Positions 1 through 27,353 of a DNA stretch of 34,639 bases are shown piece after piece. The position numbers and the translations under genes are program-made. Each line of letters opens with the position of its first letter. The first letter of the stretch is position 1. The notes beneath the pieces are model-generated. The model was not told where the DNA came from. It did no database searches and was given only the letters and a program-made list of their open reading frames with translations. This stretch comes from a virus. The stretch is taken from IMG/VR virus record IMGVR_UViG_3300028840_004348. One strand, written 5' to 3'.

Positions 1-249
1 GTTGAGTCTTCGGTTGACGGTGTGTTCGTGATACTTCTCCTCGCCTCGCAGTCGCTCATTCTCCTCCTGTAGCGCATCCTTCTCAGCGAGCGAGCCGATG
101 AAGTCATTGATCTGATGATGGAGGTTGGTGTTCTCCTTCTCCAGCTCGGCGATGCGCTTGTCCTTCGCATCGAGCGTCGCGAGCCGGGCGTCGCGTTCTT
201 CCTTGGTCTCGTAGCGCCCGGTGTCCGGATTCCAGTAAGGTCCACTCAT
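1..249 (-). CDS. hypothetical coiled-coil protein, N-terminal part only (ORF continues past coordinate 1)
   Basis: Read by eye: ATG at 249-247 opens MSGPYWNPDTGRYETKEERDARLATLDAKDKRIAELEKENTNLHHQ..., with no stop before position 1. It shares the IAELEKENT heptad motif with the next gene. It is absent from the ORF track because it is truncated. Confidence 0.4.
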   Translation of the reverse strand, partial: MSGPYWNPDTGRYETKEERDARLATLDAKDKRIAELEKENTNLHHQINDFIGSLAEKDALQEENERLRGEEKYHEHTVNRRLN

Positions 250-263
250 CTTGAATCTCCTGT

Positions 264-572
264 TCAACTTCCTCTCTTCCGAGACCGGTAGCGCTTCACC
301 CGCGCCAACCCCTTGGCTCGCACCCGATCCCGGTACTCCTTCAGCTCCGCCACCTGGGCGCGGAGCTGCGTGTTCTCCTTTTCCAGCTCGGCGATGCGTG
401 CCGGCACGCAGATCGTCTCGCCGTCAACCACGACGTTCCCGTTGGGATCCTGAGAGCACTTGCCGTTCTCGAACTCGCCAACCGTCTTGCAGTAGCGCGG
501 CACCCACGACGGGCAGTTCCGCGACGTGCACCGCGCCACCCCGTCCACCAGCTTCGGCTGAACCTCGGGCAC
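264..572 (-). CDS. small Cys-cluster plus coiled-coil protein (paralog of the 1-249 ORF)
   Basis: Track ORF. GTG start directly abuts the upstream stop (TGAGTG), with a GAGGAG SD 6 nt upstream. N-terminus is C-x6-C...C...C, followed by a leucine-zipper-like ARIAELEKENTQLRAQVAELKEY. Confidence 0.5.
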   Translation of the reverse strand: MPEVQPKLVDGVARCTSRNCPSWVPRYCKTVGEFENGKCSQDPNGNVVVDGETICVPARIAELEKENTQLRAQVAELKEYRDRVRAKGLARVKRYRSRKRGS

Positions 573-869
573 TCAGCGCTCCTCGACCAGCTGGGCCACG
601 ACTACAGGCTCCAGGCTGCATGGCTCACACAACGTAATCTCCACCGGCTCCATCAGCGGCTCGGTCATCTCTTCGTTCGGTCCCATGATGTTGGCCAGCA
701 GGGCGTTCCCACCGAGCATCCCGGTCAGGTGGTCCTGCCGCACCACCGCGTCCCGTTTCACCCCGTGCCGCTCGATCTTCAAGGTCCAGAAGATGGGCAG
801 CCCGGCGTGCCCGATGGGTTTCCCGCAGCTCGCGCAGATCGCTCGCTTCCTCAGTTCGTCTTCACGCAT
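573..869 (-). CDS. hypothetical small CxxC protein
   Basis: Track ORF 573..1031 trimmed to the internal ATG at 869 (MREDELRKRAICASCGKP...). That ATG sits 1 nt after the stop of the 871..1146 gene and follows a GGGAGGA SD. The longer version overlaps the upstream gene. Confidence 0.45.
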   Translation of the reverse strand: MREDELRKRAICASCGKPIGHAGLPIFWTLKIERHGVKRDAVVRQDHLTGMLGGNALLANIMGPNEEMTEPLMEPVEITLCEPCSLEPVVVAQLVEER

Positions 870-870
870 C

Positions 871-1146
871 TCAATCCTCCCGCTTCCAGCCGAGCCTCTC
901 CAGTCTTTCGACTTCCGCCGCCACCTCCTCCTTGCTGTCGTAACGTTCGATTCCGACGTAGGTGAGTATCGCGTTGCCCGGCACATCGTAGACGACTTCC
1001 TCGATCTGATACTCGCCGTCACCGTCCACAATCGTTAAACCCACGAACGGCGACAGCGGCATGTCGACCTTCAGCACCATCCTCGCGTCCGTGCTGCAAT
1101 AGCCGAACTTCTCGCAGCTGAGCCTCAGCTTGATCTCCACCTTCAT
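871..1146 (-). CDS. hypothetical protein
   Basis: Track ORF. Its ATG is preceded by GGGAGGACTGAA, which lies inside a duplicated 23-nt element. Confidence 0.5.
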   Translation of the reverse strand: MKVEIKLRLSCEKFGYCSTDARMVLKVDMPLSPFVGLTIVDGDGEYQIEEVVYDVPGNAILTYVGIERYDSKEEVAAEVERLERLGWKRED

Positions 1147-1172
1147 TTCAGTCCTCCCGAGCTGCCAGGACC

Positions 1173-1628
1173 TCAGAGCGTCCTGATGTCCTCCGTCATC
1201 TTCAGAAGATCGATCTCCTCTTTAACTGCGAGAATCGTGACCTTCGTCTTGCTGCCGGGTGGCGTCGTCAGCCTGATGAGCTTCTTCTTTCTGAGTGCCT
1301 TGAGTGCTCGGGAGACAGTGCTGCGGTCACAACCGATCCACTCGGCGATGTCGTTAATCGGTACCTGCATCGATGCCGAGTTGATCTCGGCTGCCATGTT
1401 CCAGAGATAGATACCGACGTCGAGAGTGCGACCCTTGGCCCGAGCGGCGCGCCGGAACCAGTTCATCGGGAAGTTCTCTAGCCGTCTTGAGTTCTGGAAC
1501 AACCGTGGCACGATGCCTCTGGATCGTTCCAAAAGCATGTTTTCGTACTTATCGGAGAAGTAGTTCAGCTCGTTGCAGAGTTGGCCCAGCGCCAACTTCG
1601 TTTCGGCATATGGAGAGATCGGTTCCAT
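1173..1628 (-). CDS. winged-helix / HTH transcriptional regulator
   Basis: Track ORF. The C-terminal half carries a helix-turn-helix signature, INDIAEWIGCDRSTVSRALKALRKKKLI, of MarR/GntR-like type. A GGGAGGACTGAG SD copy lies upstream. Confidence 0.6.
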   Translation of the reverse strand: MEPISPYAETKLALGQLCNELNYFSDKYENMLLERSRGIVPRLFQNSRRLENFPMNWFRRAARAKGRTLDVGIYLWNMAAEINSASMQVPINDIAEWIGCDRSTVSRALKALRKKKLIRLTTPPGSKTKVTILAVKEEIDLLKMTEDIRTL

Positions 1629-1629
1629 C

Positions 1630-1983
1630 TCAGTCCTCCCGAGCTGCCAAGATACGGAGCGTATCGAGGTCCTCGATGACCTCGGCCACCCCCACCATCA
1701 GCAGCCGCCCGTCGAGCCTCTCGGTGCGCGGCTCGTACTTCCGGAACAGGTGGTCGATCTGGTTCTTGACGCGCCGCAGCACGAACTTCAACGGGTCGGG
1801 CGCATGGTGCTCCACCGAAGATGCCTCGACTTCATCTATCGGCACCACCGTCAGCCCCATCTTCCGAAGCTCGGGCTCCACGTAGGCCGTCACCCAGTGC
1901 CGGCTGGTGCCGAAGCACTTGAATGCCCGCTGGAGCGCGTTCTTCAGGTCCGCCTCGATACTTGAGTGCAAGTTCTCCGACAT
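1630..1983 (-). CDS. hypothetical protein
   Basis: Track ORF with a GGGAGGTAGCAG SD before the ATG at 1983. A promoter-like TATATTGAGA lies just upstream, around 2015-2045. The C-terminal 7 codons are encoded by the duplicated 23-nt element. Confidence 0.5.
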   Translation of the reverse strand: MSENLHSSIEADLKNALQRAFKCFGTSRHWVTAYVEPELRKMGLTVVPIDEVEASSVEHHAPDPLKFVLRRVKNQIDHLFRKYEPRTERLDGRLLMVGVAEVIEDLDTLRILAARED

Positions 1984-4100
1984 CTGCTACCTCCCATATT
2001 CACACATAGACCCTCTCTCAATATACTAAAAGCCCACGGGTGTCAAGTTCGAAGTTCAGGGCCGACCTCAACTTCATCTTCCCGGCAACTTCGTCTCTCA
2101 AACGACTTCGTCTTTCAACGACTTCGTCTCTCAAACGACTTCGTCTCTCAGGGCCAAGATGGGACCCGATGCTTTTTGTCGAACCCTCTCCAACCAGTTT
2201 CCACTTGCCAGAATGCTGGTGGGTACATCCGAGGAGTTGGTGACTTCAGTTCGAGTTGGCCAGACTCGGTTCGGATCGGCAACATCGTTCAACATGAGAA
2301 CCTTGTCCAACCTTGGCCGAGGTTGCCGAAGTTCTCAAGTTGATGAAGTTGACTTCGTCACATCGGATGAACGTCGGCAATGATTGGCCAGGATGGGACC
2401 CAATTCTCCAGCTGGAGAAGTCGGCCAACTTCGTCTCCCAGAGCCAAGATGGGACCCGTACAAGTTCGGAAGATGGGACCCAATCGAAGTTCGGGAACTT
2501 GGTCGATATGGGACCCAAGAAAGCATAGAAGAAGCCTTCTTCGGGGGTTGGGGAAGTCGAAAAGGATCGTTCGAAGTTTTTGAGATGATAGGGGTTGCCA
2601 GGATTGTCCAATGATTATGTGGAGTTGGACGGTATTGGTAGGATTGGAATCCGATATATTATCTGGGGATGGGACCCAAATCTATGTGATCCAAAGCCCG
2701 GGATCGCGATCCGATAATCAGCTAGATCGACCCCCGGGGTCCAATAATCCCCAAGATCCGCCGAAATCAGCATAATCTTCGGCAAACTTAGGAAGATTAT
2801 CCAACTTCCAGCAAACTTCAGCCCAACTTCAGGACCAGCCGCCTTGTCGGATTGTCAACACTCAGGAAGATTCACCCTTGTCAGATTATCAATAGGCAAC
2901 ACGATGGATTATCGGATTGACTTGCCCAACACCTGGCCAACTTCAGCCCAGGTTGGCGAGATGAATGCGCCCATCTTGGCCAGGATTGGCCCGAACTCGG
3001 GAACCTCTACAACCTATCCCTGGAGCCCAAGCTCCTTAAGCACGGACAGGACTTCACGGAGCTGCTTCGAGGAGCCGCCCAGACCAGCTCTGCGCCCCGC
3101 TACCAGCCATCGCCAGCGCCTGCCGGCCTTCCAGATGTACACCATATCGAACCTCCTCGTCGAGCCTATCAATCCTTCCCAAGGCGGGTCAACTTTTCGG
3201 CTCTCCGTTGGTCGGAGACCACATCTTCCGAACTTCGACCAAGTTCGGGAAAGGTTGGTGAAGATGGATCACGATCCGTCTGACGAGAGTGTATCGATTC
3301 TTGATGGAATTGCGCAATCGTTAACGGTCGGGCAAGTTGGGTGTTGACGAATCGTCAACTCTATTTCGAATATCAATGCGGTTCGAGGATGGATTTTCGG
3401 ATTAGTTCAATGTTTGCGAGAGGTTGATGAAGTTCGGCTGGGGAAGTTGCCGAAGATTGTTCAAGGATCGCGGATTTTGGATCGGATTGGGACGGATCGC
3501 GATCCGCGCGATCCGCTGGTCTGGTCGATTCTCACCTATATACTGAGAGCCTACTTGACGGGTACTTGATGGCCGCTTGCTTGCCAATCCCGACCCAACC
3601 TCACCAATCTCCGTCCACTTCGTTCCAATCTCGGCAACTTGCTCCCTCTATCCAATCCTTGGCCACTCCGTTCCGAACTTGGCAACTTCGAACCAACCTC
3701 ATCTATCTGTCCAACTCCTTGGATGTACCCAGGCGAGTTTCTGGTGGGGGAAGTATCTACCGACTTCATCAAGCTTGCCGACTTACTCCAGCCGGCCAAT
3801 CCTTGTCCACTTCGTTCGAGTGAAGCAACTTGGTCAACTTCATCCCTTCGAGCTAACTTCATCTATCTGGCCAACTCGAACTGAAGTCACCAACTCCTCG
3901 GATATACCCAGGCGAGTTTGGCTGATGAGCTATGAGGAGAGGGGATGTACTTACCATGGAGAGAATCTGCCGCGCCATCCTCCTTTTCAACCACCTGATG
4001 TATCGGGTGCAATCTTAGCTTGGACCGACGAAGTCGTTAGAACTTCGAAGTTGAAGTTCAGAAGTTCGGGACTTCGAGGTTCAGCAAGTTCGGGCCGTCA
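1984..4100. repeat. 2.1-kb ORF-poor, repeat-dense locus (candidate replication origin, iteron field or genome-terminus region)
   Basis: There is no convincing CDS on either strand; the track ORFs here are low complexity. A 4x tandem 17-nt repeat lies at 2087-2150. Six copies of GATGGGACCC occur at 2158, 2392, 2448, 2472, 2517 and 2668. Perfect palindromes GGATCGCGATCC (2701-2712) and CGGATCGCGATCCG (3493-3506) are present. DnaA-box-like TTATCCAAC / GATTATC motifs occur at 2797-2915. Many AACTTCG / CCAACTTC short repeats run throughout. A roughly 50-nt direct repeat occurs at about 3697-3745 and 3848-3920. Confidence 0.6.
2087..2150. repeat. tandem array, 4 x roughly 17 nt ((A)ACGACTTCGTCTCTCA), abutting a GATGGGACCC box
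   Basis: Read directly: caacttcgtctctca / aacgacttcgtctttca / acgacttcgtctctcaa / acgacttcgtctctca, followed by gggccaagatgggaccc. Confidence 0.6.
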
Positions 4101-4279
4101 TACAGACGGTTGCTCCAGGGTACCGGTCACGAGGATCTGAGAGACGAAGTCGTGACTTCCCACATTCCTTCGACCGCTTCGTCCACGGGATCCTTGAACT
4201 TGGGTTTGCTCCAGCTCCGGGCCGCGAGCTGGGCTCGAAGATCAGCCAGGTCTGTATCTTCGTCGTGCTCGCCTACCAA

Positions 4280-4720
4280 TCACTCGTCCTCTTCATCTTC
4301 CCAATGTTCGTCGAGTCCTTCGTTCCAGATCTCCAGCTGACGCTCGGGCTTCAGAAGTTGGTTTTTCGAAAGAACCGCATACTCCTGCTTGAGACGCTCC
4401 TGGCTGCCCTGCTGACGGCGCGCGAGACGATAAGGGTAGAACTCCACCGGCAGCTCCGGCAGCCCGCAGAGGCGGCGGTGCAGCTGCTGGACGCCCCAGG
4501 AGGGCTCGTACCGGTCGCAGACGTGGAGAACTTCATCAATGGGATTCGGGAACTTCATCTTCTTGAGATCTTCGAACTTCTTGGAAGTATCGAGATCGTA
4601 GAAGCAGTATACCTCCTCCTCGAAGATCTCCTTGTCGCCGATGATGCCCATCCTCGTGTCGACCGCCCGGTGCTCGCAGGTGGCGCAGCATTCGGGGAAC
4701 GTCGGTCTCGGCTTGCCCAT
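4280..4720 (-). CDS. hypothetical Cys-rich protein with acidic C-terminus
   Basis: Track ORF 4280..4987 trimmed to ATG 4720 (MGKPRPTFPECCATCEHR...), which has an AGGAGGGG SD. The longer form would overlap the 4777..5196 gene. Confidence 0.45.
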   Translation of the reverse strand: MGKPRPTFPECCATCEHRAVDTRMGIIGDKEIFEEEVYCFYDLDTSKKFEDLKKMKFPNPIDEVLHVCDRYEPSWGVQQLHRRLCGLPELPVEFYPYRLARRQQGSQERLKQEYAVLSKNQLLKPERQLEIWNEGLDEHWEDEEDE

Positions 4721-4776
4721 GACCCCTCCTACAGCTTGGTCGCGACGATATGAATGAACATCGCATCGTCTCCATT

Positions 4777-5196
4777 TCAACCGTTCTCCTTCGATTTCTC
4801 CAGTTCCTTCTCCAGCTTGTCGATGGCGGCGTCCACCTTCTTCCCGTAGGCCCGCATCCGCTCCAGGTAGGCCTCGACGGCGGCTCGCTCCTCCCGGTAC
4901 AGATCGGGCTGCTGGTACTTCAGGACGCCCGTGATGCCGCCCTGCTTCTCGGTCCTGAACCTGCCGGCACCGATCATCATCGCGCACAGGTCGAACGGGG
5001 ACGCCGACTGCTCTTCGCCCTGGAGATAGAGCGTCAGCCCGGTCTTCTCGCTCTTGTGGACCGTGAAGACCTGCTTGTGCTGGGAGATGTAGCTGTCGCA
5101 GATCTCCACGTACTCCAGCACGCTGAACTGAGGAGAGCCGGTACTCTCGTCGATGAGATAGAGCTTCTTGGGGCGGTCTTTCTCGGGTTCGGACAT
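4777..5196 (-). CDS. hypothetical protein
   Basis: Track ORF with a strong AGGAGGAAAGG SD. Confidence 0.55.
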   Translation of the reverse strand: MSEPEKDRPKKLYLIDESTGSPQFSVLEYVEICDSYISQHKQVFTVHKSEKTGLTLYLQGEEQSASPFDLCAMMIGAGRFRTEKQGGITGVLKYQQPDLYREERAAVEAYLERMRAYGKKVDAAIDKLEKELEKSKENG

Positions 5197-5205
5197 CCTT
5201 TCCTC

Positions 5206-5505
5206 CTACTGCAAGCCGTTCAGCCGTCCCAGCAGCTCGTCCGCGAGCGCCAGGTAATGAGGCACGAGGTTTTGATTGCCGTCCGGGTTGCCGTTGGAGT
5301 TCCCGGCGAGCGCTTCTCTCCAGAAGGTGAGGGCCTCCCGGAAACCTTCGACCATCTCCGTGATCTTGGACCGCTGTTCGTCCGAGGGTTCGAAACCCTG
5401 TCGAAAGTCGACTAAGGTGTCTTCCAGCATCGCCAGCGTGGCCCCGAACTGGCCGTGGATTTCCATGACGCGGTCGATGGCTTCCTGCTTGGTCAGCTCA
5501 GTCAT
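5206..5505 (-). CDS. hypothetical protein
   Basis: Track ORF. Its start overlaps the stop of the upstream gene by 8 nt. A GGAG lies upstream. Confidence 0.5.
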   Translation of the reverse strand: MTELTKQEAIDRVMEIHGQFGATLAMLEDTLVDFRQGFEPSDEQRSKITEMVEGFREALTFWREALAGNSNGNPDGNQNLVPHYLALADELLGRLNGLQ

Positions 5506-5827
5506 GTTTCTCCATCTCGAAGGTGATCACGAGCGCACCCCTGTCGGAGATGGTCGCCCTCGTTTTCACTCGGATCACCGAGACCGCCAGCTTGAAGTGA
5601 AGCAGGCTCGGATCCTCCTCGTCGACCCAGACGGGACATTCGTAGTCCTCCAGCCCGAGATCGACCGTGGCGAACCAGGCCTCTCCGACCGGCGTCTCCT
5701 CCCAGGGCAATACCAGCGCGCCCCAGTCGGGACCGTATACCTTCCCGAGATCCGCCGGGTTCACCAGGATCGCGTCGCTCCCGGGCGTGTCAGGCCAGAG
5801 ATCCGGAATCAATTGATCGTTCGACAT
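5498..5827 (-). CDS. hypothetical acidic protein
   Basis: Track ORF. Its ATG sits 1 nt after the upstream TGA, with a GGAGAG SD. Confidence 0.5.
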   Translation of the reverse strand: MSNDQLIPDLWPDTPGSDAILVNPADLGKVYGPDWGALVLPWEETPVGEAWFATVDLGLEDYECPVWVDEEDPSLLHFKLAVSVIRVKTRATISDRGALVITFEMEKHD

Positions 5828-5828
5828 C

Positions 5829-5957
5829 TCAGCTCTCCTGCTCTTCTCCTCCGTAGATGACCATCACCGGCTCGATCTCTTCGCCGGCTACGTCCTCGAT
5901 GTATTTGATGCAGGCGATGCAATAATCATCAGCATCACTGAAGATTTCTTTTTTCAT
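5829..5957 (-). CDS. very small acidic CxxC protein (42 aa)
   Basis: Track ORF 5829..6167 trimmed to the ATG at 5957, which forms an ATGA overlap with the stop of 5954..6301 and has an AAGGAG SD 5 nt upstream. The N-terminal extension in the track is Arg-rich, low-complexity, and overlaps the upstream gene. Confidence 0.35.
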   Translation of the reverse strand: MKKEIFSDADDYCIACIKYIEDVAGEEIEPVMVIYGGEEQES

Positions 5958-6301
5958 ATCGTCTCCTTGAACCGTTCCAGCTCTCCGTCGATCTCGCGTA
6001 TCCGAAAAATCTGACCTTCGATCATTCCTGCCAACCGGAACATCTCTTCTTCGAGCATCTCGTTGACGGTCGGCTCCTCCCACGACCAGATCCACCTCCA
6101 GGCCAGCCGCTGGAATCCCCGGAGATGGGTGACGCACCAGCTCTCCGCTTCGTCGCGTTCTTCCCAAAGCATGAACCTTTCGACTTCGCGCAACAGGTCC
6201 CAGCCGAGACTCTCCAAAGCTCCTGCCGGCACGGCTTGGTACAGGTGGGCTCCGATCATCTCCTTGAGGAAGTCGGCTTCGAGGATTGGTTCAGAGTTCA
6301 T
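5954..6301 (-). CDS. hypothetical protein
   Basis: Track ORF with an ATGA overlap to the upstream gene stop. Confidence 0.5.
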   Translation of the reverse strand: MNSEPILEADFLKEMIGAHLYQAVPAGALESLGWDLLREVERFMLWEERDEAESWCVTHLRGFQRLAWRWIWSWEEPTVNEMLEEEMFRLAGMIEGQIFRIREIDGELERFKETI

Positions 6302-6519
6302 TCCGGAACCTGCACCACGGTCGTCCGGTCGTAGTCAGGTTCTCCGGTTACGGCGATGCGCATCTCCGGATCCTTGGGCTGGCGACCGCCGGTCACCGTC
6401 TCCATCGCACCGTGGTCCCATGCTTCCGCCTTGTCGCGAGCCTCGTCCTCGTCTTCGGCCTCCACTACCCTCCAGACCTCGACAGTTATCGGGACGCTAA
6501 TCTCGAACTTGGGCATCAT
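6298..6519 (-). CDS. hypothetical acidic protein
   Basis: Track ORF with an AAGGAGAAC SD. Confidence 0.45.
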   Translation of the reverse strand: MMPKFEISVPITVEVWRVVEAEDEDEARDKAEAWDHGAMETVTGGRQPKDPEMRIAVTGEPDYDRTTVVQVPE

Positions 6520-6736
6520 GGTTCTCCTTCTTGGCGCACTGCCGACACTGCTTATGCTTTATCTCCGCGAGGTCCTTTTCGGCCTCGGCAGGATGACAAA
6601 CCTTCTCATGACCGCATTCCAGGATGAAGAAGACGCTTTTACCACGTTGGATACGATCAACCACCAGGCGTTTCGGGCCACCTTTCGGTCGGCTGCGGGG
6701 ACGGTCCTTGCGCCGTCTGTGTCCCCTCGCGCTCAT
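6497..6736 (-). CDS. small basic protein with C-terminal CxxH...CxxC (zinc-ribbon-like)
   Basis: Track ORF 6497..6859 trimmed to ATG 6736, which shares a base with the upstream TGA (TGATG). An AAGAGGA SD is present. The longer form overlaps the 6736..7440 gene by 124 nt. Confidence 0.35.
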   Translation of the reverse strand: MSARGHRRRKDRPRSRPKGGPKRLVVDRIQRGKSVFFILECGHEKVCHPAEAEKDLAEIKHKQCRQCAKKENHDAQVRD

Positions 6737-7347
6737 CAATCCTCTTCCGGATGCGCTTTGCACCATTCGCAGTCGCAGTCGGGATCGTCGTGCCAGTTGA
6801 TCCAGGCGATATCGTCGCCTTCGAGGGAGACGCCGCCAGGCATCTTGCACTCCGAGCACCGAACTTCGTCACCTTCGTAGAACTCCTCGTCGCTCGGGCT
6901 ATCGGTGAGGATCTCTGGGTCGCCCCCGCAGTATGGACAGCTGTCCCACTCGATCATCACCCAGCGCTTGCCGAAGGCGTCTTTCTCAGCTGAATAAGAA
7001 GAAGAAAAAACTTTGTTTTTCTTGACTTTGCTCGACTCGCGCACCTTTTGCTTGAACTCTTCGATGATGTCGAGCCGGTTGGTGACGGGATTGCAATAGT
7101 CTTCTCGAAAGCTGCGAATCTCCTCGGCCATCTTGACGGCCACCTTTCGCCAGTCGAGGTTTTCGGTATCGGGGCGCAGGAAAGCGGGCTCGCATTCGCT
7201 GAGCGCGCCCACGATGCGGTCGGCGATCTCCTTGCGCTCCAGCAGCTTGACGCCGTAGCCAGCGAGAACGTCCACGATGAGCGTCCACGATGCGCTGTAG
7301 AGTAGGTTTTTCGGACGAGTTCCAAGGGTAGGTTCAACCTTCTTCAT
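6736..7347 (-). CDS. hypothetical protein with C-terminal multi-Cys zinc ribbon
   Basis: Track ORF 6736..7440 trimmed to ATG 7347 (MKKVEPTL...) with a GGAGAGGAG SD. The C-terminus carries CPYCGG...CSECK...CDCEWC. Confidence 0.5.
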   Translation of the reverse strand: MKKVEPTLGTRPKNLLYSASWTLIVDVLAGYGVKLLERKEIADRIVGALSECEPAFLRPDTENLDWRKVAVKMAEEIRSFREDYCNPVTNRLDIIEEFKQKVRESSKVKKNKVFSSSYSAEKDAFGKRWVMIEWDSCPYCGGDPEILTDSPSDEEFYEGDEVRCSECKMPGGVSLEGDDIAWINWHDDPDCDCEWCKAHPEED

Positions 7348-7525
7348 GGCTCGTCTCCTCTCCGTACTGTCGCTCGATGTGCATTCCGGCAGCCACCGCC
7401 CGCTCGACTCCCTCCAAATACTCCTTGGCCGTGAAGACATGGCCGCGCAGTACCTGGATCAACCACATGCCGACCGCTCCGAGTGCGATTCCCGATGCTA
7501 CGCACATGATCTCATTCATCTTCAA
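7334..7525 (-). CDS. small single-pass membrane protein
   Basis: Track ORF with an AGGAG SD. It contains a hydrophobic stretch, IMCVASGIALGAVGMWLIQVL. Confidence 0.4.
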   Translation of the reverse strand: MKMNEIMCVASGIALGAVGMWLIQVLRGHVFTAKEYLEGVERAVAAGMHIERQYGEETSHEEG

Positions 7526-8027
7526 CTCCTGCGGGCTCGATGTGAGCCCATGCGCCGACGAGCACCCGGTTCCACTTCCAGCTGTCGGCTTCGATCTCCT
7601 CGTGTTCTTCGTCGGTCATTCCCCACCAGAGATGGTCCAGTTGGCCGAGCAGCTCGTCCTCTTCGTCCTCGGTGAGAACTTCGAGGAACTGGTTGATCAA
7701 GTACGCGTCGTGCAGCTTCTGGTACTCAGTCTTCATCTGGATGAGGATCGTCCAAGTAGGGATCCTGCTCCTTGAACTCACGCCGCACCTCTTCGATGCG
7801 GACGTACTCGACGGTGCCCTCCTCTGCGCCTCCTTGACCAGCTCTCGCTGATCGGCACGGAGCTTCGAATACTTGTAGTACTTGTACTCTTCGATGACGC
7901 GTCGAAGCGTTTCCTCATCGCTCTCGTGAACAAGGCGAACTCCGGCCATCAACGCGCTGGTGAGCTGTGCCAACTCCAACTCGTGTAAGATTCGCTTCAG
8001 ATCAGCTGTTAGTTCAGCCATCCTCAT
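7512..8027 (-). CDS. hypothetical protein, acidic C-terminus
   Basis: Track ORF 7512..8069 trimmed to ATG 8027 (MRMAELTADL...). The choice among the three close ATGs at 8045, 8027 and 8021 is uncertain. Confidence 0.4.
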   Translation of the reverse strand: MRMAELTADLKRILHELELAQLTSALMAGVRLVHESDEETLRRVIEEYKYYKYSKLRADQRELVKEAQRRAPSSTSASKRCGVSSRSRIPTWTILIQMKTEYQKLHDAYLINQFLEVLTEDEEDELLGQLDHLWWGMTDEEHEEIEADSWKWNRVLVGAWAHIEPAGVEDE

Positions 8028-8319
8028 TGGGATCGCCCCCTTCATCTGCCGGCACGTAGCCGATGGCATTCTTGCCGAGCATCACCGTGCGCTCCACCGG
8101 CACTCCTAGCCAGCGGGCCATCTGCTTCTGCTTCTCCTTGCGCCTCCAGACGAAGTGACCGTGGATGAGCGCGATCACGACGCAAATCAGCGTGAGCGCG
8201 CCCTGGCAGAACCACCACCAGAACTCTCGGTCGGATTGCAGCACAAGCCCCATGATAATGGCGAACGCGAGCCCGATGAGCCCGCACCAGACGGGCGAGT
8301 AGGCGATCTTGATCTTCAT
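8014..8319 (-). CDS. small two-TM membrane protein (holin-like topology)
   Basis: Track ORF 8014..8370 trimmed to the ATG at 8319, which forms an ATGA overlap with the upstream stop and has a GGAAGG SD. Two hydrophobic helices are present, IAYSPVWCGLIGLAFAIIMGLVL and WWWFCQGALTLICVVIALIHGHF. Confidence 0.45.
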   Translation of the reverse strand: MKIKIAYSPVWCGLIGLAFAIIMGLVLQSDREFWWWFCQGALTLICVVIALIHGHFVWRRKEKQKQMARWLGVPVERTVMLGKNAIGYVPADEGGDPNEDG

Positions 8320-8747
8320 TCCGCAGGCCTTCCGTTGATGAGCTTGGCTACATCCAAGAATCCCAGCCAACCTCCGCCAACTACTTCGGCGATAACGTAG
8401 CGAGGCTTCTCCTCGTCAGGCTCGTAGATCCGAAGGCCGGTAATGAAGTAAGCGATGCCGGTCTCGATGTTCTCGTCGGTGATGATCTGCTGGATGCGCT
8501 GCTCGATGAAGACGGTCGCTCCCTGATCGGCTCTCCGGGACTTCTCCAGAATCCCCTCGACTTGCTCTCTCGTCCAGGGAGGTTCCACCTGTAAAGGAGC
8601 AGGACCGTACAGCTGCTGGAAGACCTGCGACATGGCCGAAGAGCGTTCCTGCTTTGACGACTCGTCGTGAGGAGGGTGCTCGGTCGCTCCGGCTATCCTG
8701 CGCCGGTACAGCTCCCTGGACTTCGGACAATCGTCCTTACAGCTCAT
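8316..8747 (-). CDS. hypothetical protein
   Basis: Track ORF with a GGAGAAG SD and an ATGA overlap to the upstream gene. Confidence 0.5.
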   Translation of the reverse strand: MSCKDDCPKSRELYRRRIAGATEHPPHDESSKQERSSAMSQVFQQLYGPAPLQVEPPWTREQVEGILEKSRRADQGATVFIEQRIQQIITDENIETGIAYFITGLRIYEPDEEKPRYVIAEVVGGGWLGFLDVAKLINGRPAE

Positions 8748-9124
8748 TTTTCTTCTCCAGCTGTAATTTTTGCAAATTCATCGACTCGATCCTTGTACAA
8801 CGTCGTCCGGATCCGCTCCAATTCGCGCTCACGAGCCTCCAGGCGGCGCTGTGTTCGCCGATGAGCCTCCTTCTCGACCCGGAGGGCCTCTTCCAGCTCG
8901 GGGAGCTTACGGAGCCGCTCACGGCCTTCCTCGACGAGATTGAGTGCCGTCGCCCTGTTCGTAGTCATCAATTTCAGCTGATATTGTAAATCTGCATTAC
9001 GCTTGGCCAGACCGTCGATTGTCAAGTAGAGCTTCACCCGCTCGAAGTCGCTGCCGAACAGAGGATCCTTCTCGGCTCGAAGGGCTCGCTCAACCGACTG
9101 CCGGATGTCCGAGGACATATCCAT
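8744..9124 (-). CDS. hypothetical coiled-coil protein
   Basis: Track ORF 8744..9217 trimmed to ATG 9124 (MDMSSDIRQ...), which has an AAGGAG SD. The longer form overlaps the ATP-grasp gene. Confidence 0.45.
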   Translation of the reverse strand: MDMSSDIRQSVERALRAEKDPLFGSDFERVKLYLTIDGLAKRNADLQYQLKLMTTNRATALNLVEEGRERLRKLPELEEALRVEKEAHRRTQRRLEARERELERIRTTLYKDRVDEFAKITAGEEK

Positions 9125-9155
9125 GAACTCCTTGGGAATCTTCAGTTTTTCGAGC

Positions 9156-10007
9156 TTATCGTCGTCCACGATGGCCCCCTCCTTCCAAACCGAGCGCCTT
9201 GCGCTTCGCCTCTTCAATGACCTTCCAAGCCTCGTAGTAGCGGTTGAAATGGTCTTCGAGGGCCATGATGAGCCGTCCCATGTTGGCCTTGTAGAAGCCG
9301 GCGCAATTGACGCAGCCGCACTCGACGATCTTCCATTCGTCGTCGACCATGCAGACGTCCATCACGAAGGCGTCGGCGAGCTGGAAGACCTTGACCATCT
9401 TCTCGCAGAACTCTCGGGCTGCGGGATCGATAGCTCCGCTTTGCACGACCTGTGTCCCGAGCTTGTAGAGACTCCCCGTGACGATCTCACCGCCCACCAC
9501 CCAGAAGCGATACTCCTTTTGGATCTTCTTCACCGAGGCGACCTGGATGGGCGTCAGACTGCTCAGCGACGAAGTGTGGCCGTCCGTGAGCTTCCGCTGC
9601 TGGAACTCGCGCCAGCCGTCCTCGTCGAACACCTGGCCGTTGAAATCCTTGGTATCAGCGCACGGGCGGATGAAATAGGCCTGCTTCTCCCACTTCCAGT
9701 CGTCCCGGAACTTCCGAAGCTCCGAGTCCCAGTTGAGAAGATGCTCCCGGTAATGGTTGCGATACACGAAGAAGTGATGATTCGCGTTCACCAGAACGCC
9801 CGGCACCCAGTCGAACTTCTTGGCCAACCGGACCATCTTGAGCGAGCCGAACACGAAGACATCCCGCCGCTTGGTCTGAACTTCGAAGTTCTCGACGAAC
9901 GGCAGAACTTTGACGACTTCCCAGTCGAGCTGAAGACGCTCCAACGTCCGCGTCAGAGCATCATACCCTTCCTCGCGGAACACGTTCTCTTGTATCACAT
10001 AGAACAT
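9156..10007 (-). CDS. ATP-grasp superfamily protein (ligase of unknown substrate)
   Basis: Track ORF 9156..10049 trimmed to ATG 10007, because the annotated start lies inside a TTGACA-17-TATAGT promoter at 10021-10050. ATP-grasp-like motifs are present: FIRPCADTKDFNGQVF, RFWVVGGEIVTGSLYK and AFVMDVCMVDDEWKIVECGCVNCAGFY. Confidence 0.55.
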   Translation of the reverse strand: MFYVIQENVFREEGYDALTRTLERLQLDWEVVKVLPFVENFEVQTKRRDVFVFGSLKMVRLAKKFDWVPGVLVNANHHFFVYRNHYREHLLNWDSELRKFRDDWKWEKQAYFIRPCADTKDFNGQVFDEDGWREFQQRKLTDGHTSSLSSLTPIQVASVKKIQKEYRFWVVGGEIVTGSLYKLGTQVVQSGAIDPAAREFCEKMVKVFQLADAFVMDVCMVDDEWKIVECGCVNCAGFYKANMGRLIMALEDHFNRYYEAWKVIEEAKRKALGLEGGGHRGRR

Positions 10008-10020
10008 CTCTTGCGCTCTG

Positions 10021-10050
10021 ACTATATAGAGGAAAGTTTCCCCTGTCAAG
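10021..10050 (-). promoter_or_regulatory. promoter TTGACA-17-TATAGT for the ATP-grasp gene
   Basis: Minus strand reads GCTTGACAGGGGAAACTTTCCTCTATATAGTCAGAGCGCAAGAGATG. Confidence 0.45.
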
Positions 10051-10072
10051 CAGACAGATCGACAGCTTCTGC

Positions 10073-10456
10073 CTACTCCGGCTGCTTCACTTTCATCCGC
10101 TGGCTCACACTCTCGATGTGGTCGATGGTCTTGCCGGCATCGTTCAAGATGTAGGCTTCTCCGTCGAACACGATGTGTGTTTCCTGATTCCCCTTGCGGA
10201 CTTCGACTACTGTCGCACCGCTCCAGCTGCTCGGGCCGGAGATGAGTTCACCTCCACGACGACATTCCGAAGGCATCAACCAAACCCCATCTTCGGGTGG
10301 AACAGGAAGAATACCGTCCTCGGTCATCCGCTCCAAGTCCTCCGAACTGAGGTACGCCCAAATCTTGATGCTGTCACCTTCGCAATAGAACCAGGGCGTC
10401 TCTCGTGGACCTCCCCAACATCTGTACTTCGAGCTGGCGTCGATCTTGATGATCAT
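10073..10456 (-). CDS. hypothetical protein
   Basis: Track ORF 10073..10552 trimmed to ATG 10456, which has an AAAGGAGAAAGG SD. The longer form overlaps tRNA-Tyr. Confidence 0.5.
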   Translation of the reverse strand: MIIKIDASSKYRCWGGPRETPWFYCEGDSIKIWAYLSSEDLERMTEDGILPVPPEDGVWLMPSECRRGGELISGPSSWSGATVVEVRKGNQETHIVFDGEAYILNDAGKTIDHIESVSQRMKVKQPE

Positions 10457-10528
10457 GACCTTTCTCCTTTCTGCGGCCTTCTGGCTGACTATCTTGCTGT
10501 CGATCTGTCTGGGGATAATATACAGGAT

Positions 10529-10615
10529 TGGGAGATGGTGGAATCGAACCACTTGCCTCGTGGAGGAGCGGGTTTACAGCCCACCGCAGGCCCAGCCTGC
10601 CTTAGAGCACCTCCC
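10529..10615 (-). tRNA. tRNA-Tyr (anticodon GTA), class II with long variable arm
   Basis: Folded by eye. The acceptor stem is GGGAGGT/ATCTCCC and the anticodon loop is CUGUAAA. The T-loop is TTCGATT. The gene is 87 nt with discriminator A and no encoded CCA. Confidence 0.6.
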
Positions 10616-10617
10616 GT

Positions 10618-10706
10618 TGCACGGGGTGGGATTCGAACCCACACTGTCTCTTAAGCGTTGCCCTGGGGCCTGAACCCAGCGCCTCTACCAGTTGGGCTAC
10701 CCGTGC
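10618..10706 (-). tRNA. tRNA-Leu (anticodon CAG), class II
   Basis: The acceptor stem is GCACGGG/CCCGTGC and the D-stem is 3 bp with an 11-nt D-loop (CAACTGGTAGA). The anticodon loop is TTCAGGC. The long variable arm is present. The gene lies 2 nt (AC) upstream of the tRNA-Tyr 5' end. Confidence 0.55.
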
Positions 10707-10741
10707 GCTATCTAGATGCTAATTAGCGTCTAATTAGCATC

Positions 10742-10817
10742 TGGTGGACAGGGACGGAGTCGAACCGCCTACACCCGGAACTTCAATCCGGTGCTCTACC
10801 AGTTGAGCTACCTGTCC
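10742..10817 (-). tRNA. tRNA-Phe (anticodon GAA)
   Basis: A 76-nt cloverleaf with acceptor GGACAGG/CCTGTCC and D-stem GCTC/GAGC. The anticodon loop is TTGAAGT and the T-loop is TTCGACT. CCA is encoded. Coordinates were anchored on track ORF 10791. Confidence 0.65.
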
Positions 10818-10819
10818 GT

Positions 10820-10892
10820 TGCGCGTGGAGGGATTCGAACCCCAACATCCGGACCCTCAGTCCGGCGACTCTGCCAGTTGGCCTACACGCGC
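10820..10892 (-). tRNA. tRNA with anticodon GAG (Leu-decoding) but class-I length (73 nt, short variable loop)
   Basis: The acceptor stem is GCGCGTG/CACGCGC with discriminator A73, and the D-arm is Leu-type (3-bp stem, 11-nt loop CAACTGGCAGA). The anticodon stem is CCGGA/TCCGG and the loop is CTGAGGG. The T-loop is TTCGAAT. The isotype needs tRNAscan-SE confirmation. Confidence 0.45.
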
Positions 10893-10959
10893 GTTGTGTT
10901 TCACCTGCTGTCAGCAACCTCCGTTGTCGCTCACTTTCGAACGAATCTGATCAACCAAG

Positions 10960-11033
10960 TGCGACCGCCGGGAGTCGAACCCGGAACATCCTGCTTTTGA
11001 AACAGGCGACTCTGCCAGTTGGCCTACGGTCGC
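10960..11033 (-). tRNA. tRNA with anticodon CAA (Leu-decoding), class-I length (74 nt)
   Basis: The acceptor stem is GCGACCG/CGGTCGC with discriminator A, and the D-arm is identical to the GAG tRNA. The anticodon loop is TTCAAAA and the T-arm is CCGGG-TTCGACT-CCCGG. Coordinates were anchored on track ORF 10997. Confidence 0.45.
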
Positions 11034-11037
11034 TCGA

Positions 11038-11110
11038 TGCGTCCGCCAGGATTCGAACCTGGAACCCCCGGTGTTTAAAGCCGGTGCCTCTGCCGTTGAG
11101 CCACGGACGC
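11038..11110 (-). tRNA. tRNA with anticodon TAA (Leu-decoding), class-I length (73 nt)
   Basis: The acceptor stem is GCGTCCG/CGGACGC with discriminator A, and the D-arm is similar to the other two short Leu-type genes. The anticodon loop is TTTAAAC, with a C-A mismatch closing the stem. The T-arm is CCAGG-TTCGAAT-CCTGG. Confidence 0.4.
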
Positions 11111-11114
11111 TCGG

Positions 11115-11188
11115 CAGGAGAGCCAGGATTCGAACCTGGGTTTGAGGACTTGGAAACCTCCGTGCTGGACCGCTCGCACTACTCTCCC
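11115..11188 (-). tRNA. tRNA-Trp (anticodon CCA)
   Basis: The acceptor stem is GGGAGAG/CTCTCCT with discriminator G and the D-stem is GTGC/GCAC. The anticodon loop is TTCCAAG, with an imperfect anticodon stem. The T-arm is CCAGG-TTCGAAT-CCTGG. Confidence 0.5.
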
Positions 11189-11190
11189 GT

Positions 11191-11263
11191 GGTGACCGAC
11201 GAGACTTGAACTCGCAACGACCGGGGCCACATCCCGGCGCTCTACCAGTTGAGCTACGGCCAC
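11191..11263 (-). tRNA. tRNA-His (anticodon GTG), no encoded G(-1)
   Basis: The acceptor stem is GTGGCCG/CGGTCAC with discriminator C, and the anticodon loop is ATGTGGC. The T-loop is TTCAAGT. The nucleotide 5' of G1 is T, so G-1 is not templated. Confidence 0.55.
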
Positions 11264-11265
11264 AG

Positions 11266-11350
11266 CGGAGGACGCAGGGCTCGAACCTGCACCGGGATGA
11301 ACCGGACGACGCCTTAGCAGGGCGCTGCGATACCATTCTGCCAGTCCTCC
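11266..11350 (-). tRNA. tRNA-Ser (anticodon GCT), class II
   Basis: The acceptor stem is GGAGGAC/GTCCTCC with discriminator G, and the anticodon loop is CTGCTAA. The long variable arm is present. The T-arm is GCAGG-TTCGAGC-CCTGC. Confidence 0.55.
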
Positions 11351-11415
11351 ACATTAAAATTTTCCTCCATTTTCTTTAATAGTTCGGATCCTAATTAAAA
11401 CTTTCTTCAATACTG

Positions 11416-11488
11416 AGTCCCGAGCCGGAATCGAACCGGCGTCTGAGGATTTGCAGTCCCCCGCTTGAACCTGCTCAGCTACCGGGAC
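11416..11488 (-). tRNA. tRNA-Cys (anticodon GCA)
   Basis: The acceptor stem is GTCCCGG/TCGGGAC with discriminator U, which is typical for Cys. The anticodon loop is CTGCAAA and the T-arm is GCCGG-TTCGATT-CCGGC. Coordinates were anchored on track ORF 11465. Confidence 0.55.
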
Positions 11489-11491
11489 AAG

Positions 11492-11563
11492 CAGGGCCGG
11501 GCGGAGTCGAACCGCCGTACTCGGGTCCAAAGCCCGATGCTCTACACGTTGAGCTACGACCCC
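11492..11563 (-). tRNA. tRNA-Gln (anticodon TTG)
   Basis: The acceptor stem is GGGGTCG/CGGCCCT, with two G-U pairs, and the discriminator is G. The anticodon loop is CTTTGGA and the T-arm is GGCGG-TTCGACT-CCGCC. Confidence 0.5.
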
Positions 11564-11565
11564 GG

Positions 11566-11655
11566 AGGAGGGCGAGGGATTCGAACCCCCACGCCGGGAC
11601 AACGCCGACGACCGCGATTTTCGAGACCGCTCCAATACCGTTCTGGCAGCCCTCC
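11566..11655 (-). tRNA. tRNA-Ser (anticodon CGA), class II
   Basis: The acceptor stem is GGAGGGC/GCCCTCC. The anticodon arm, GCGGT-CTCGAAA-ATCGC, matches the canonical Ser(CGA) arm. The long variable arm is present. The discriminator reads U, which is atypical for Ser. Confidence 0.5.
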
Positions 11656-11700
11656 GATTGGTAAATCTTTCCATCACTTAACACTTCTTTACCGTTCGAG

Positions 11701-11787
11701 CGGAAGCGCCTGGACTCGAACCAGGACCACGGGAAACCGTGCTCTCGGCCTTCCAAGCCGGGGCCTTACCGTTGAGGCTACGCTTCC
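11701..11787 (-). tRNA. tRNA-Ser (anticodon GGA), class II
   Basis: The acceptor stem is GGAAGCG/CGCTTCC with discriminator G, and the anticodon loop is TTGGAAG. The long variable arm is present. The T-arm is CCTGG-TTCGAGT-CCAGG. Confidence 0.55.
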
Positions 11788-11800
11788 GAACTGGAAACGA

Positions 11801-11911
11801 TTAGCTTAGATAAAGCAGTGATTGATGCTGGATAAACGAGGAGAGACACCAGAGGCGGGGAGCCTTGGCGGTGGGGGCGATCATCTTTCCGATTCGCTTT
11901 CGACGTTTCAT
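11801..11911 (-). CDS. possible 36-aa basic micro-ORF inside the tRNA array (speculative)
   Basis: ATG at 11911 is preceded by GGAGAGACCG. It encodes MKRRKRIGKMIAPTAKAPRLWCLSSFIQHQSLLYLS within the 138-nt spacer between tRNA-Pro and tRNA-Ser(GGA). It is absent from the ORF track because it is too short. Confidence 0.15.
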   Translation of the reverse strand: MKRRKRIGKMIAPTAKAPRLWCLSSFIQHQSLLYLS

Positions 11912-11925
11912 CGGTCTCTCCTCGG

Positions 11926-11999
11926 TCCGGGCGAGAGGATTTGAACCTCCAACCTCTAGATCCCGAATCTAGCGTGCTACCAGATTGCACTACACCCGG
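11926..11999 (-). tRNA. tRNA-Pro (anticodon CGG)
   Basis: The acceptor stem has the C1-G72 pair characteristic of bacterial Pro, CCGGGTG/CGCCCGG, with discriminator A. The D-stem is GTGC/GCAC and the anticodon arm is CTAGA-TTCGGGA-TCTAG. The T-loop is TTCAAAT. Confidence 0.55.
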
Positions 12000-12104
12000 A
12001 TAGTCTACAGCCCCTCGCGGGGTGGTGTAGGCTTCCGGGCTGGTCGTGCTGTCTGGTTCTTCTTCATCGCACGCTTCTTCGCGCCGCTACGCGGCGAAGT
12101 CTCA

Positions 12105-12133
12105 AATATAGAAGAAGCCCTCAAAGAGATCAA
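12105..12133 (-). promoter_or_regulatory. candidate tRNA-operon promoter TTGATC-17-TATATT (the -35 overlaps the GNAT stop codon)
   Basis: Minus strand reads GCTTGATCTCTTTGAGGGCTTCTTCTATATTTGAGA. This is followed by a GC hairpin, CTTCGCCGCGTAGCGGCGCGAAG. The tRNA-Pro 5' end is about 100 nt downstream. Confidence 0.35.
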
Positions 12134-15080: not shown

Positions 15081-15162
15081 GTCATTGCCCTCCTGTTGGT
15101 GTCATTCTTGATACTCTCTCTATATAGCACAGAGTCTACCCGATAAGCAAGCAAATTCTAGA

Positions 15163-15194: not shown

Positions 15195-15500
15195 GGTTAG
15201 ATCTTCACATGTAGATCGCGGGCGCAACCCGCATGCCACCTCTAAGTATCCGGTACTTGAGTTAAGTACCGGATCGTGGCGCGGGCGTGTTGGTGCGCCA
15301 CAAAAACCCCTTTTTTCGACTCTGATCGGTGCCGGGAGCTAGCGGCTGTCAACCGTGAGTATTCCTGATTGACTCGAAGCGCCGGGGGAGGAGGCGGCGA
15401 TGTGATCTTCGAGACCAACCAAGCAAGGACACCGATCATCTTCTTTGGGTCTCCCTTTGACACCCTCTCTGTATAGCAGATAGTCCACCACGAAGTCAAG
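15195..15500 (-). other. promoter-to-terminator bounded unit of about 300 nt with strong hairpins: candidate structured sRNA, or a 65-aa ORF (15242..15439)
   Basis: It is bounded by TTGACT-18-TATACA (about 15465-15499) and the terminator at 15163-15193. It contains a perfect 11-bp-stem hairpin at 15248-15274 and a 7-bp GC hairpin at 15276-15301, followed by AAAAACCCCTTTTTT. The track ORF (MIGVLAWLVSKITSPPPPP...) has a weak SD and spans the palindromes. Confidence 0.3.
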
Positions 15501-19266: not shown

Positions 19267-19285
19267 TATAGAAAGAGTACTAGAG

Positions 19286-27323: not shown

Positions 27324-27353
27324 TATAAAAAAAGCCCACCCTAAGAAGAGAAA

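Follow-up and report, generated by a model that had tools for sequence, protein, structure and literature searches.

The described systems that bear most closely on the locus reported here are of three kinds: the iteron-type replication origins, such as lambda ori, P1 oriR/incA, F ori2 and RK2 oriV; the complex lytic origins of the herpesviruses (oriLyt), with their divergent flanking promoters, together with archaeal origins, in which inverted recognition boxes are arranged around an AT-rich element; and the injection-stop-signal region (repeat region 3) of phage T5. The last of these is characterised by paired DnaA boxes (bioRxiv 10.1101/866236). Here we describe a locus of about 2.1 kb, dense in repeats and free of open reading frames (ORFs), that lies at positions 1984–4126 of a 34,639-nt stretch of viral DNA (IMG/VR record IMGVR_UViG_3300028840_004348; the whole stretch is called the window below). 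The window comes from the genome of a large phage, whose host is probably a member of the Myxococcota, and the locus adjoins an operon that leads to a gene for a Cas12m-like protein and a CRISPR array. Judged by its repeats and by related versions beside cas12m in two other phages, the locus is very probably a working DNA control site; with somewhat less than even confidence, we tentatively favour a large, complex origin of lytic replication, flanked by outward-facing promoters. The origins and other cis-acting sites of huge phages are essentially unmapped, since these phages are known almost only from metagenomes; a set of boxes conserved in three genomes of ~190–205 kb provides a concrete and testable candidate for such a control site.

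The limits of the locus are set by the flanking genes, with the right edge placed at 4126 because the 50-aa ORF there closes the upstream operon.

1984–4126, no strand assigned: ORF-free, repeat-dense locus between the start of a 117-aa gene (1630–1983, minus strand) and the stop of a 50-aa ORF (4127–4279, minus strand).

A preliminary description of this DNA had found no credible gene in the interval, and the coding signal bears this out. With a codon-usage model trained on the long genes of the window, the log-likelihood is at most ~0.1 per codon in all six frames over ~1951–4110, whereas the genes on either side, read in their correct frame, reach 0.2–0.5. The ORFs inside the locus are short or compositionally junk; a 167-aa plus-strand ORF that appears as a public gene call has neither coding signal nor homologue, and none of the small ORFs is conserved in the two related phages described below. 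The GC content is 0.50–0.54, compared with ~0.58–0.60 in the flanks. The same sequence is carried, in the same orientation and with a single mismatch over window positions 1–10640, by a 146,827-bp contig from the European Nucleotide Archive (ENA), L002, so that two independent assemblies run through the locus without a break; the neighbouring proteins are recorded also on a 188,555-bp contig of the Joint Genome Institute (JGI), giving a phage genome of at least 188 kb. No match to the locus was found by blastn among 50,697 phage records.

Repeats exceed chance expectation by far. The short words noted in the preliminary description share an RACTTS core, of which there are 47 in 1984–4160 (21.6 per kb, a six-fold excess over the 3.6 per kb of the remaining window). 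Around these words are set several longer boxes and palindromes, which we designate G, C, D, P and T.

2158–2677, plus strand: six G boxes GATGGGACCC, exact at 2158, 2392, 2448, 2472 and 2668, with TATGGGACCC (one mismatch) at 2507.
2305–2395, no strand assigned: long imperfect palindrome containing box D CCAACCTTGGCCGAG (2307–2321); fold z-score −3.6 on the plus strand and −2.6 on the minus strand.
2580–2700, no strand assigned: lowest-GC core of the locus (0.44–0.45), which holds box C GATTGTCCAATGATTATGTGGAGTTGG (2602–2628, plus strand).
2701–2712, no strand assigned: perfect GGATCGCGATCC palindrome (GGATCGCGATCC(G)), followed by GATAATC.
3266–3277, no strand assigned: GGATCACGATCC, a third, imperfect palindrome of the GGATCGCGATCC type, from the repeat search.
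3343–3359, no strand assigned: box P, the perfect palindrome GTTGACGAATCGTCAAC, from the consensus scan.
3494–3505, no strand assigned: perfect GGATCGCGATCC palindrome within a GATC-rich patch (3464–3515).
3551–3572, plus strand: box T in two copies, CTACTTGACGG and GGTACTTGATGG, which match a tandem in one of the relatives.

The six G boxes and two perfect palindromes that had been described from the sequence are thus present as stated, one of the boxes being near-exact, and the third palindrome is additional. Two G boxes are indeed fused to ACTTCGTCTC, in segments (2138–2168 and 2428–2458) that are 94% identical over 31 nt. No exact copy of GATGGGACCC occurs elsewhere in the 34.6 kb, and the spacings between boxes are irregular (234, 56, 24, 35 and 161 nt). 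GATC itself is not enriched, its density being 6.5 per kb in the locus and 7.7 per kb window-wide.

Comparison with two related phages suggests that these elements are functionally important. With the Cas12m-like protein as bait, a 205,564-bp IMG/VR contig (L130) was recovered, and an alignment of the two proteins led to a second contig, of 192,260 bp (L131). The genome records are ENA ERZ27256783 k141_823475 for our phage, and IMGVR_UViG_3300017963_000003 (Ga0180437_10000100) and IMGVR_UViG_3300036761_001580 for the two relatives. A profile search with the Cas12m alignment against 5.8 billion proteins gave only distant matches of 27–29% identity and no further loci. The three Cas12m proteins are themselves only 36–47% identical, and no other shared protein is seen within 10 kb on either side of the three loci or in the window. 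Upstream of cas12m in both relatives there is an ORF-free, repeat-dense gap of ~1.9–2.1 kb.

L130, 4741–6617: ORF-free region 3.3 kb upstream of cas12m, between two convergent gene 3′ ends.
L131, ~7890–9991: ORF-free region directly upstream of cas12m, where gene blocks diverge.

Conservation of the repeats in related phages had been set beforehand as the test of a functional locus; both counterparts prove to share boxes and architecture with our phage. The three regions cannot be aligned end to end, and what they have in common is a set of boxes. Box G, which reads TTGGGTCCCAT in the direction of the genes, is present in six copies in our phage, two in L130 and one in L131, always in the same orientation relative to cas12m. 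Box C is a 27-nt composite, GATTnnYCAATGATT-N8-TTGG, found at 2602–2628 of the window, at 5745 in L130 and at 9079 and 9276 in L131; its 17-mer GAGATTAGCCAATGATT is identical in the two relatives, and a scan of IMG/VR with the composite returned only these two contigs plus 12 AT-rich matches, about the number expected by chance. Palindromes of the form GATCGCG(C)GATC followed by RATAATC occur in all three phages (GATCGCGCGATCCAATAATC in L131, GGATCGCGATC in L130). The remaining boxes are shared in pairs. The 15-mer of box D is found exactly in L130 (5604–5618), and the box P palindrome TTGACRAATCGTCAA is common to our phage and L131, where it takes the forms TTGACAAATCGTCAA (9149–9164) and TTGACGATTTGTCAA (9203–9218). 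Box T, GGTACTTGATGG, present twice in our phage, corresponds with a six-fold 11-nt tandem, GGGTACTTGAT, at 9623–9690 in L131 (E 5e-4), in the opposite orientation. Window positions 3449–3484 also align with L131 8847–8883 (E 0.013).

The sharing of exact words is well above control levels. Fifteen nine-mers are common to the three regions, compared with 0.66 in shuffled sequences and 2.6–3.6 (at most 13) in coding-segment controls; our phage and L130 have seven 12-mers in common, where controls reach at most three, and L130 and L131 share 25. The link between our phage and L131 is marginal by exact words and is carried by the composite boxes. In each locus the boxes are almost confined to the ORF-free region, and seven other Cas12m loci, one of them on a 201-kb contig, lack them. 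The short word CAACYY/RRGTTG is enriched in all three regions, at 14.4 per kb in the region against 1.8 in the rest for our phage, 13.9 against 1.7 for L130 and 7.6 against 2.6 for L131. By these measures, a small clade of Cas12m-carrying huge phages has kept the locus as a vocabulary and an architecture, not as alignable sequence.

Conservation that is limited to short words suits protein-binding DNA sites better than RNA, and, taken with words in orientation blocks, palindromes, tandem arrays and an AT-rich core, points to a cis-acting site for several proteins. The orientation blocks are clearest in L130, where CAACYY words on the plus strand are gathered to one side of the AT-rich core and those on the minus strand to the other (4958–5605 and 6329–6598). 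Same-strand spacings there are phased at ~10.5–11 bp (R 0.52–0.57), with p-values that are optimistic because pair distances are not independent; such phasing is seen only in L130, the RACTTS words of our phage being without helical phasing. GC falls to 0.43–0.45 at 2550–2700 and 3350–3450 in our phage, against ~0.58 in the flanks, and the AT-rich core has a GC content of 0.44 in our phage and 0.35 in L131 (both computed) and ~0.40 in L130 (estimated from the sequence). Tandem arrays and inverted copies at the ends of the locus complete this anatomy.

2088–2150, plus strand: 17-nt tandem repeat ACTTCGTCTCTCAAACG, 3.8 copies with 91% matches (Tandem Repeats Finder score 112).
4041–4091, no strand assigned: palindrome AACTTCGAAGTT, followed by an 8-nt tandem GAAGTTCA of ~4.9 copies.
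4137–4153, minus strand: inverted copy of the 17-nt repeat, CTGAGAGACGAAGTCGT, overlapping the 3′ end of the 50-aa ORF and forming the right mirror edge.

The 17-nt tandem had already been recognised, as four copies. Its inverted copy had not: the sequence ACGACTTCGTCTCTCAG at 2135–2151 is 100% complementary to 4137–4153, so that the two ends of the locus are mirror images. An AT-rich core, iteron-like tandems (17 nt × 3.8 and 8 nt × 4.9 here, 11 nt × 6 in L131) and mirror ends are together origin-like. In a lytic replication origin of this kind, short asymmetric words (CAACTTC/GAAGTTG in our phage, CAACCYT in the relatives) would recruit an initiator and accessory factors, as would the boxes TTGGGTCCCAT and GATTnnYCAATGATT-N8-TTGG, the GATC palindromes and TTGACGAATCGTCAA. 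The duplex would open at the lowest-GC core (window 2580–2700; GC 35% in L131). The outward edge promoters would provide transcriptional activation, and the left one would also drive the operon with cas12m and the CRISPR array at its end. It is from the arrangement of these elements that we infer protein binding, opening of the DNA and initiation at the locus. The setting of the relatives is consistent with this, since a region that lies between convergent gene ends in L130 and at the divergence of gene blocks in L131 is more easily understood as a cis element standing by itself than as a promoter region.

Several observations weigh against an origin. Cumulative GC skew falls steadily over the 34.6-kb window, with only a local wobble and no turning point at the locus; the genes on both sides are all co-directional, and the skew of L131 has no sign change. 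The AT-rich dip is modest in our phage, and the centre of mirror symmetry (~3065–3125) falls in a GC-rich island, not in the AT-rich core. Box order and orientation vary between the three loci. The preliminary description had drawn on a cluster of DnaA-box-like motifs, which does not survive counting: matches to TTATCCACA with up to two mismatches number 51 in the window against 49.4 expected, and all seven in the locus have two mismatches, none having one or fewer. No recognisable conserved initiator lies beside the region. The adjoining 151-aa winged helix-turn-helix (HTH) protein (1173–1628) is Crp/MarR-like; its similarity to phrog_270, 'replication initiation protein' (E 2e-6), is weak and confined to the HTH. 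No homologue of it turned up among 5.8 billion proteins, and both L130 and L131 lack one. An origin also leaves the constant linkage with cas12m unexplained, although with three loci this could reflect shared ancestry. The origin or iteron field proposed earlier thus remains the most plausible function, with its DnaA argument lost, no turning point in the skew of the window and the neighbouring HTH protein not conserved.

The outward promoters bear on the chief alternative, in which the locus is an oversized operator or enhancer field that sets the activity of these promoters, especially that of the operon with the HTH protein, cas12m and the CRISPR array. Promoter-like elements were placed as follows.

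2011–2046, minus strand: leftward promoter-like element with TTGACA (2046–2041), a 15-nt spacer and TATATT (2025–2020), then GAGAGAGGG.
1999–2027, plus strand: overlapping rightward promoter-like site, TTCACA-17-TATACT, from the consensus scan.
3516–3549, plus strand: rightward promoter-like element CTGGTC-N17-TATACT-GAGAG, with its TATAnnGAGAG part at 3539–3549.

The edge elements CTCTCAATATACT and TATATACTGAGAG agree at 10 of 13 positions as inverted copies pointing outward, as had been noticed before, and both belong to a TATAnnGAGAG family with 17 members in the window, against 3.85 expected (none of 100 shuffles reached 17). Most members of the family are intergenic, read in the direction of the genes and follow a TTGAC-type −35 sequence. 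The left element faces the 117-aa gene and heads the operon leading to cas12m, and is convincing as a promoter; the right element is only plausible, its promoter function being inferred in view of a poor −35, and its copy at 3539–3549 is the sole exact plus-strand TATAnnGAGAG in the window, pointing against the direction of every gene. The rightward site at 1999–2027 is weak on its own, since the consensus scan found two sites in the region where 1.8 are expected.

An operator field of this kind would account for the perfect TTGACA that adjoins the leading gene of the cas12m operon, for the Crp/MarR-like protein among the first genes downstream, and for box P, TTGACGAATCGTCAA, a palindrome of two −35-like hexamers in operator fashion. 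In L131, moreover, the region lies directly upstream of cas12m and has promoters at both edges, TTGACA-N18-TATATA proximal to cas12m and a divergent TTGACA-N17-TATACT distal to it. In L130, however, the region sits between convergent 3′ ends, separated from the start of the cas12m operon by 1.7 kb and one opposite-strand gene. Its 2 kb and ~50 or more sites also far exceed the needs of known phage operator regions, and the HTH protein is not conserved in the relatives. We consider an operator field rather unlikely, while regarding it as the main competitor of a lytic origin.

Other promoter-like sequences were seen outside the locus. Further sigma-70-like copies of cTTGAC-N17/18-TATAnn-GAGAG, all on the minus strand, lie upstream of other gene blocks at window positions 15113–15150, 15462–15500, 12098–12136 and 10021–10049. 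A second motif, TTTTATATTGACAG, occurs at 19260–19273, 27317–27330 and 30452–30465 (three copies against 0.06 expected), in each case intergenic and on the minus strand, and may mark middle or late promoters that are specific to this phage and separate from the TTGAC-N-TATAnT-GAGAG class. In L131, a promoter-plus-leader of ~65 nt (TTGAC-N17-TATACT...GGTGGTCCCCAGCTGG) is duplicated at 6690–6760 and 7880–7950, ahead of two successive leftward genes.

The longest repeats of the locus, an inverted pair that had not been noticed before and a tandem pair, invite different explanations.

2220–2264 and 3866–3910, no strand assigned: 45-nt inverted-repeat arms, 98% complementary and 1601 nt apart.
3575–3925, plus strand: C-rich tandem units A (~3575–3745) and B (~3745–3925), defined by alignment; unit B holds the right arm (3866–3910).

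The arms might be recombination sites of an invertible or formerly mobile segment, whose flipping would re-aim the element at 3516–3549 toward the cas12m operon. The arms have stayed near-perfect while the similarity around them has decayed to ~74%, and boxes C, D and T, when set against the G boxes, are oriented in our phage the opposite way from L130 and L131. One flip, however, cannot turn the box order of our phage into the order seen in the relatives. Among 20 proteins of the window, Pfam and PHROG scans revealed no recombinase family, no recombinase or transposase is recognisable in the window or 5 kb beyond, and no recombinase Pfam family is listed for the called L002 genes. The ENA contig runs in the same direction as the window, from which it differs at one position in 10,640 nt. 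More simply, a repeat unit is present in three copies, and the arms are its copies B and C, the left arm being part of unit C (~2200–2370, minus strand). Logan contigs (k = 31) do break at 2256 and 3874, at both arms; because the repeat exceeds k, this is an assembly effect and not evidence of inversion. We regard inversion as the least probable of the explanations considered here. A transposon was rejected, as there is neither a transposase nor a target-site duplication at the outer ends of the arms.

The same pair of arms, 1.6 kb apart, could also belong to a DNA-entry, terminus or packaging element of the T5 injection-stop kind, beside which early and anti-competitor genes, cas12m included, would be placed. 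A genome terminus or packaging region had been among the readings of the preliminary description. The flanking genes are small ORFans of early-gene type, as such an element would lead one to expect. The paired DnaA boxes of the T5 region are nevertheless absent here, no terminase gene lies nearby, and terminal repeats or physical ends are not indicated, both assemblies passing through the locus and its counterparts being internal within the 192-kb and 205-kb contigs. An entry or packaging element accordingly seems to us improbable.

The tandem pair corresponds with what had been reported as a direct repeat of roughly 50 nt. The repetition is real, and its unit proves to be larger: A and B are each ~160–180 nt long, with 3686–3740 and 3846–3919 matching in blocks of 88–93% identity. 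Their position suggests a non-coding RNA, in which the element at 3516–3549, with its exact plus-strand match to TATACTGAGAG, would drive a C/U-rich, repeat-bearing transcript of ~400 nt, antisense to the gene orientation, that might serve in regulation, as a sponge or as a primer for replication. The two tandem units follow immediately after that element, and a hairpin with a U-run is present near 3933–3990. The predicted plus-strand transcript 3551–3995, however, folds no better than shuffled sequences (z +0.31), its terminator-like hairpin is equally unremarkable (z −0.21), and the −35 is poor. Rfam 15 gives no match at gathering score, only three chance-level matches at E up to 5, and none in the regions of L130 and L131. 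Units A and B have no counterpart in either relative, only the short words being kept. Sliding-window folding shows a sole strongly structured patch, at 2280–2400, which is the DNA palindrome around box D seen on both strands. The small-RNA locus of the preliminary description is thereby weakened, and we think an RNA function doubtful, about as improbable as an entry or packaging element.

The neighbourhood of the Cas12m-CRISPR genes raises a further question, of what connects them with the locus. From the left edge the operon runs through nine small genes to a 732-aa Cas12m-like protein with a Cas12f1-like TNB domain, whose closest solved relative is Cas12m (PDB 23vw_A, E 3.5e-47). The gene and its array lie at L002 12344–15486, ~1.7–4.8 kb beyond window position 1 and 3.7 kb downstream of the locus. 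The array comprises 11 repeats of 36 nt with spacers of 34–41 nt and is bracketed by a 38-nt inverted repeat (L002 14551–14588 and 15502–15539); no adaptation genes are seen beside cas12m or the array. The CRISPR repeats of L130 and L131 are homologous (...CCTGCGAGACGGnTTAGrAGTCTCGAC). We rejected the idea that the locus is itself a CRISPR array, leader or tracr-like element: it lacks a regular array periodicity and contains no match to the 36-nt repeat and no anti-repeat-like sequence, and the spacers of the three phages' arrays match neither the three ORF-free regions nor the window.

The distance from region to cas12m is only 0–3.7 kb in the three loci, and the orientation of the G boxes to the gene is constant. 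The repeat field and the Cas12m-CRISPR cassette might be a single co-inherited module, a weapon of replicon incompatibility or a mobile unit, which we consider unlikely. Cas12m blocks DNA by binding it, without cutting. If such a module exists, a non-cutting CRISPR effector that binds DNA would be physically joined with a complex origin or maintenance site, and this coupling would bear on how phages fight rival replicons.

The G box was also tried as a widespread iteron or handle for finding further loci, and was rejected. Paired-box scans with GATGGGACCC gave three loci in viral contigs and at least 120 in 185,579 genomes, most of them coding repeats of the MMGPG type with periods that are multiples of three. 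The 14 non-coding matches, two of them from the viral scan, are unrelated intergenic tandem repeats, and in five that were checked the neighbours are housekeeping genes or unannotated. The handle was dropped because any tandem repeat that holds the 10-mer is caught. The only real iteron case of these scans is L007 (IMGVR_UViG_3300009431_000065), in which GGGTCCCAAGATGGGACC inverted-repeat units at 130–400 lie inside an ORF with an N-terminal winged-helix domain; it resembles lambda, whose origin lies inside the O gene, and its protein is unrelated to our HTH protein.

One further feature within the locus, also missed by the preliminary description, is a candidate gene.

3014–3145, minus strand: possible 43-aa micro-gene in a GC-rich island (GC 0.63–0.66), read from the sequence.

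This ORF has GAGGAGG 7 nt ahead of its ATG and TTGACC-N18-TAGGCT upstream, and the good Shine-Dalgarno sequence and plausible promoter suggest that a genuine micro-gene, peculiar to this phage, may be present. Its codon score is neutral, and it is not conserved in L130 or L131.

Every credible gene of the window is on the minus strand. They include genes for an SNF2 helicase, a topoisomerase-like protein, an HD phosphohydrolase and an R2K ATP-grasp protein; the 117-aa, 151-aa and 147-aa proteins neighbouring the locus are ORFans for which no homologues were found. A search for relatives by way of the R2K ATP-grasp gene reached only unrelated phages of 24–26% GC and was abandoned. A search with the SNF2 helicase found a sole relative in IMG/VR, L152 (IMGVR_UViG_3300018080_005204), an 8.9-kb contig with 65% identity; given their close sample numbers, L152 and L131 may derive from related phages or samples. 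Fourteen tRNA genes (Tyr, Leu × 4, Phe, Trp, His, Ser × 3, Cys, Gln, Pro) form an array at 10529–11999 on the minus strand, and an apparent 75-nt tandem repeat at 10752–10896 is simply two adjoining tRNA genes. Degenerate tandem repeats of 6, 12, 18 and 24 nt (CGGTAT and TCGGTG units) at 23116–23310, in an apparent minus-strand gene, are probably a repetitive protein segment. At 29147–29346, just upstream of the topoisomerase-like gene, there is a 200-nt AT-rich gap (GC ~0.47, compared with 0.6), noted as the window's lowest-GC spot.

Comparison with known systems brings out which parts of the locus are unusual. The effector itself is not new, since a phage-borne type V-M Cas12m has already been reported for the myxophage lineage MV-1 (MvCas12m, 610 aa; bioRxiv 10.64898/2026.09.14.751636). 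As in that lineage, the effector of our phage and of both relatives is Cas12m-like and lies beside an array, adaptation genes being absent, and the Cas12m protein of L130 has the same size as MvCas12m, 610 aa. The MV-1 report, in contrast, covers the effector and array only, the terms 'non-coding', 'intergenic' and 'origin of replication' being absent from it. We met no description of a conserved repeat field beside Cas12m in the papers searched, though no search was targeted at such a field.

The T5 injection-stop region may be regarded as a close architectural analogue. Our locus lacks its paired DnaA boxes and any sequence similarity detectable by blastn among the 50,697 phage records, yet it shares with it inverted repeats paired kilobases apart, and a region that is kept among relatives whose neighbouring ORFs are not (bioRxiv 10.1101/866236). 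With the iteron origins of lambda, P1, F and RK2 it has in common same-strand boxes, short tandems, a core of lower GC and palindromes, as well as a neighbouring winged-helix protein faintly similar to initiator families. It differs from them in being ~10 times larger and in having heterogeneous, irregular repeats in place of 17–22-bp iterons at helical spacing; nor are DnaA boxes enriched, or an initiator gene conserved beside the region in the three phages.

The likeness to oriLyt and the archaeal origins is one of mode of working and implies no evolutionary relation. As in those origins, a non-coding region on the kilobase scale carries many direct and inverted repeats, strand-asymmetric blocks of pyrimidines and purines, and promoters that point outward, and its short words face inward around an AT-rich core, an arrangement that is clearest in L130.

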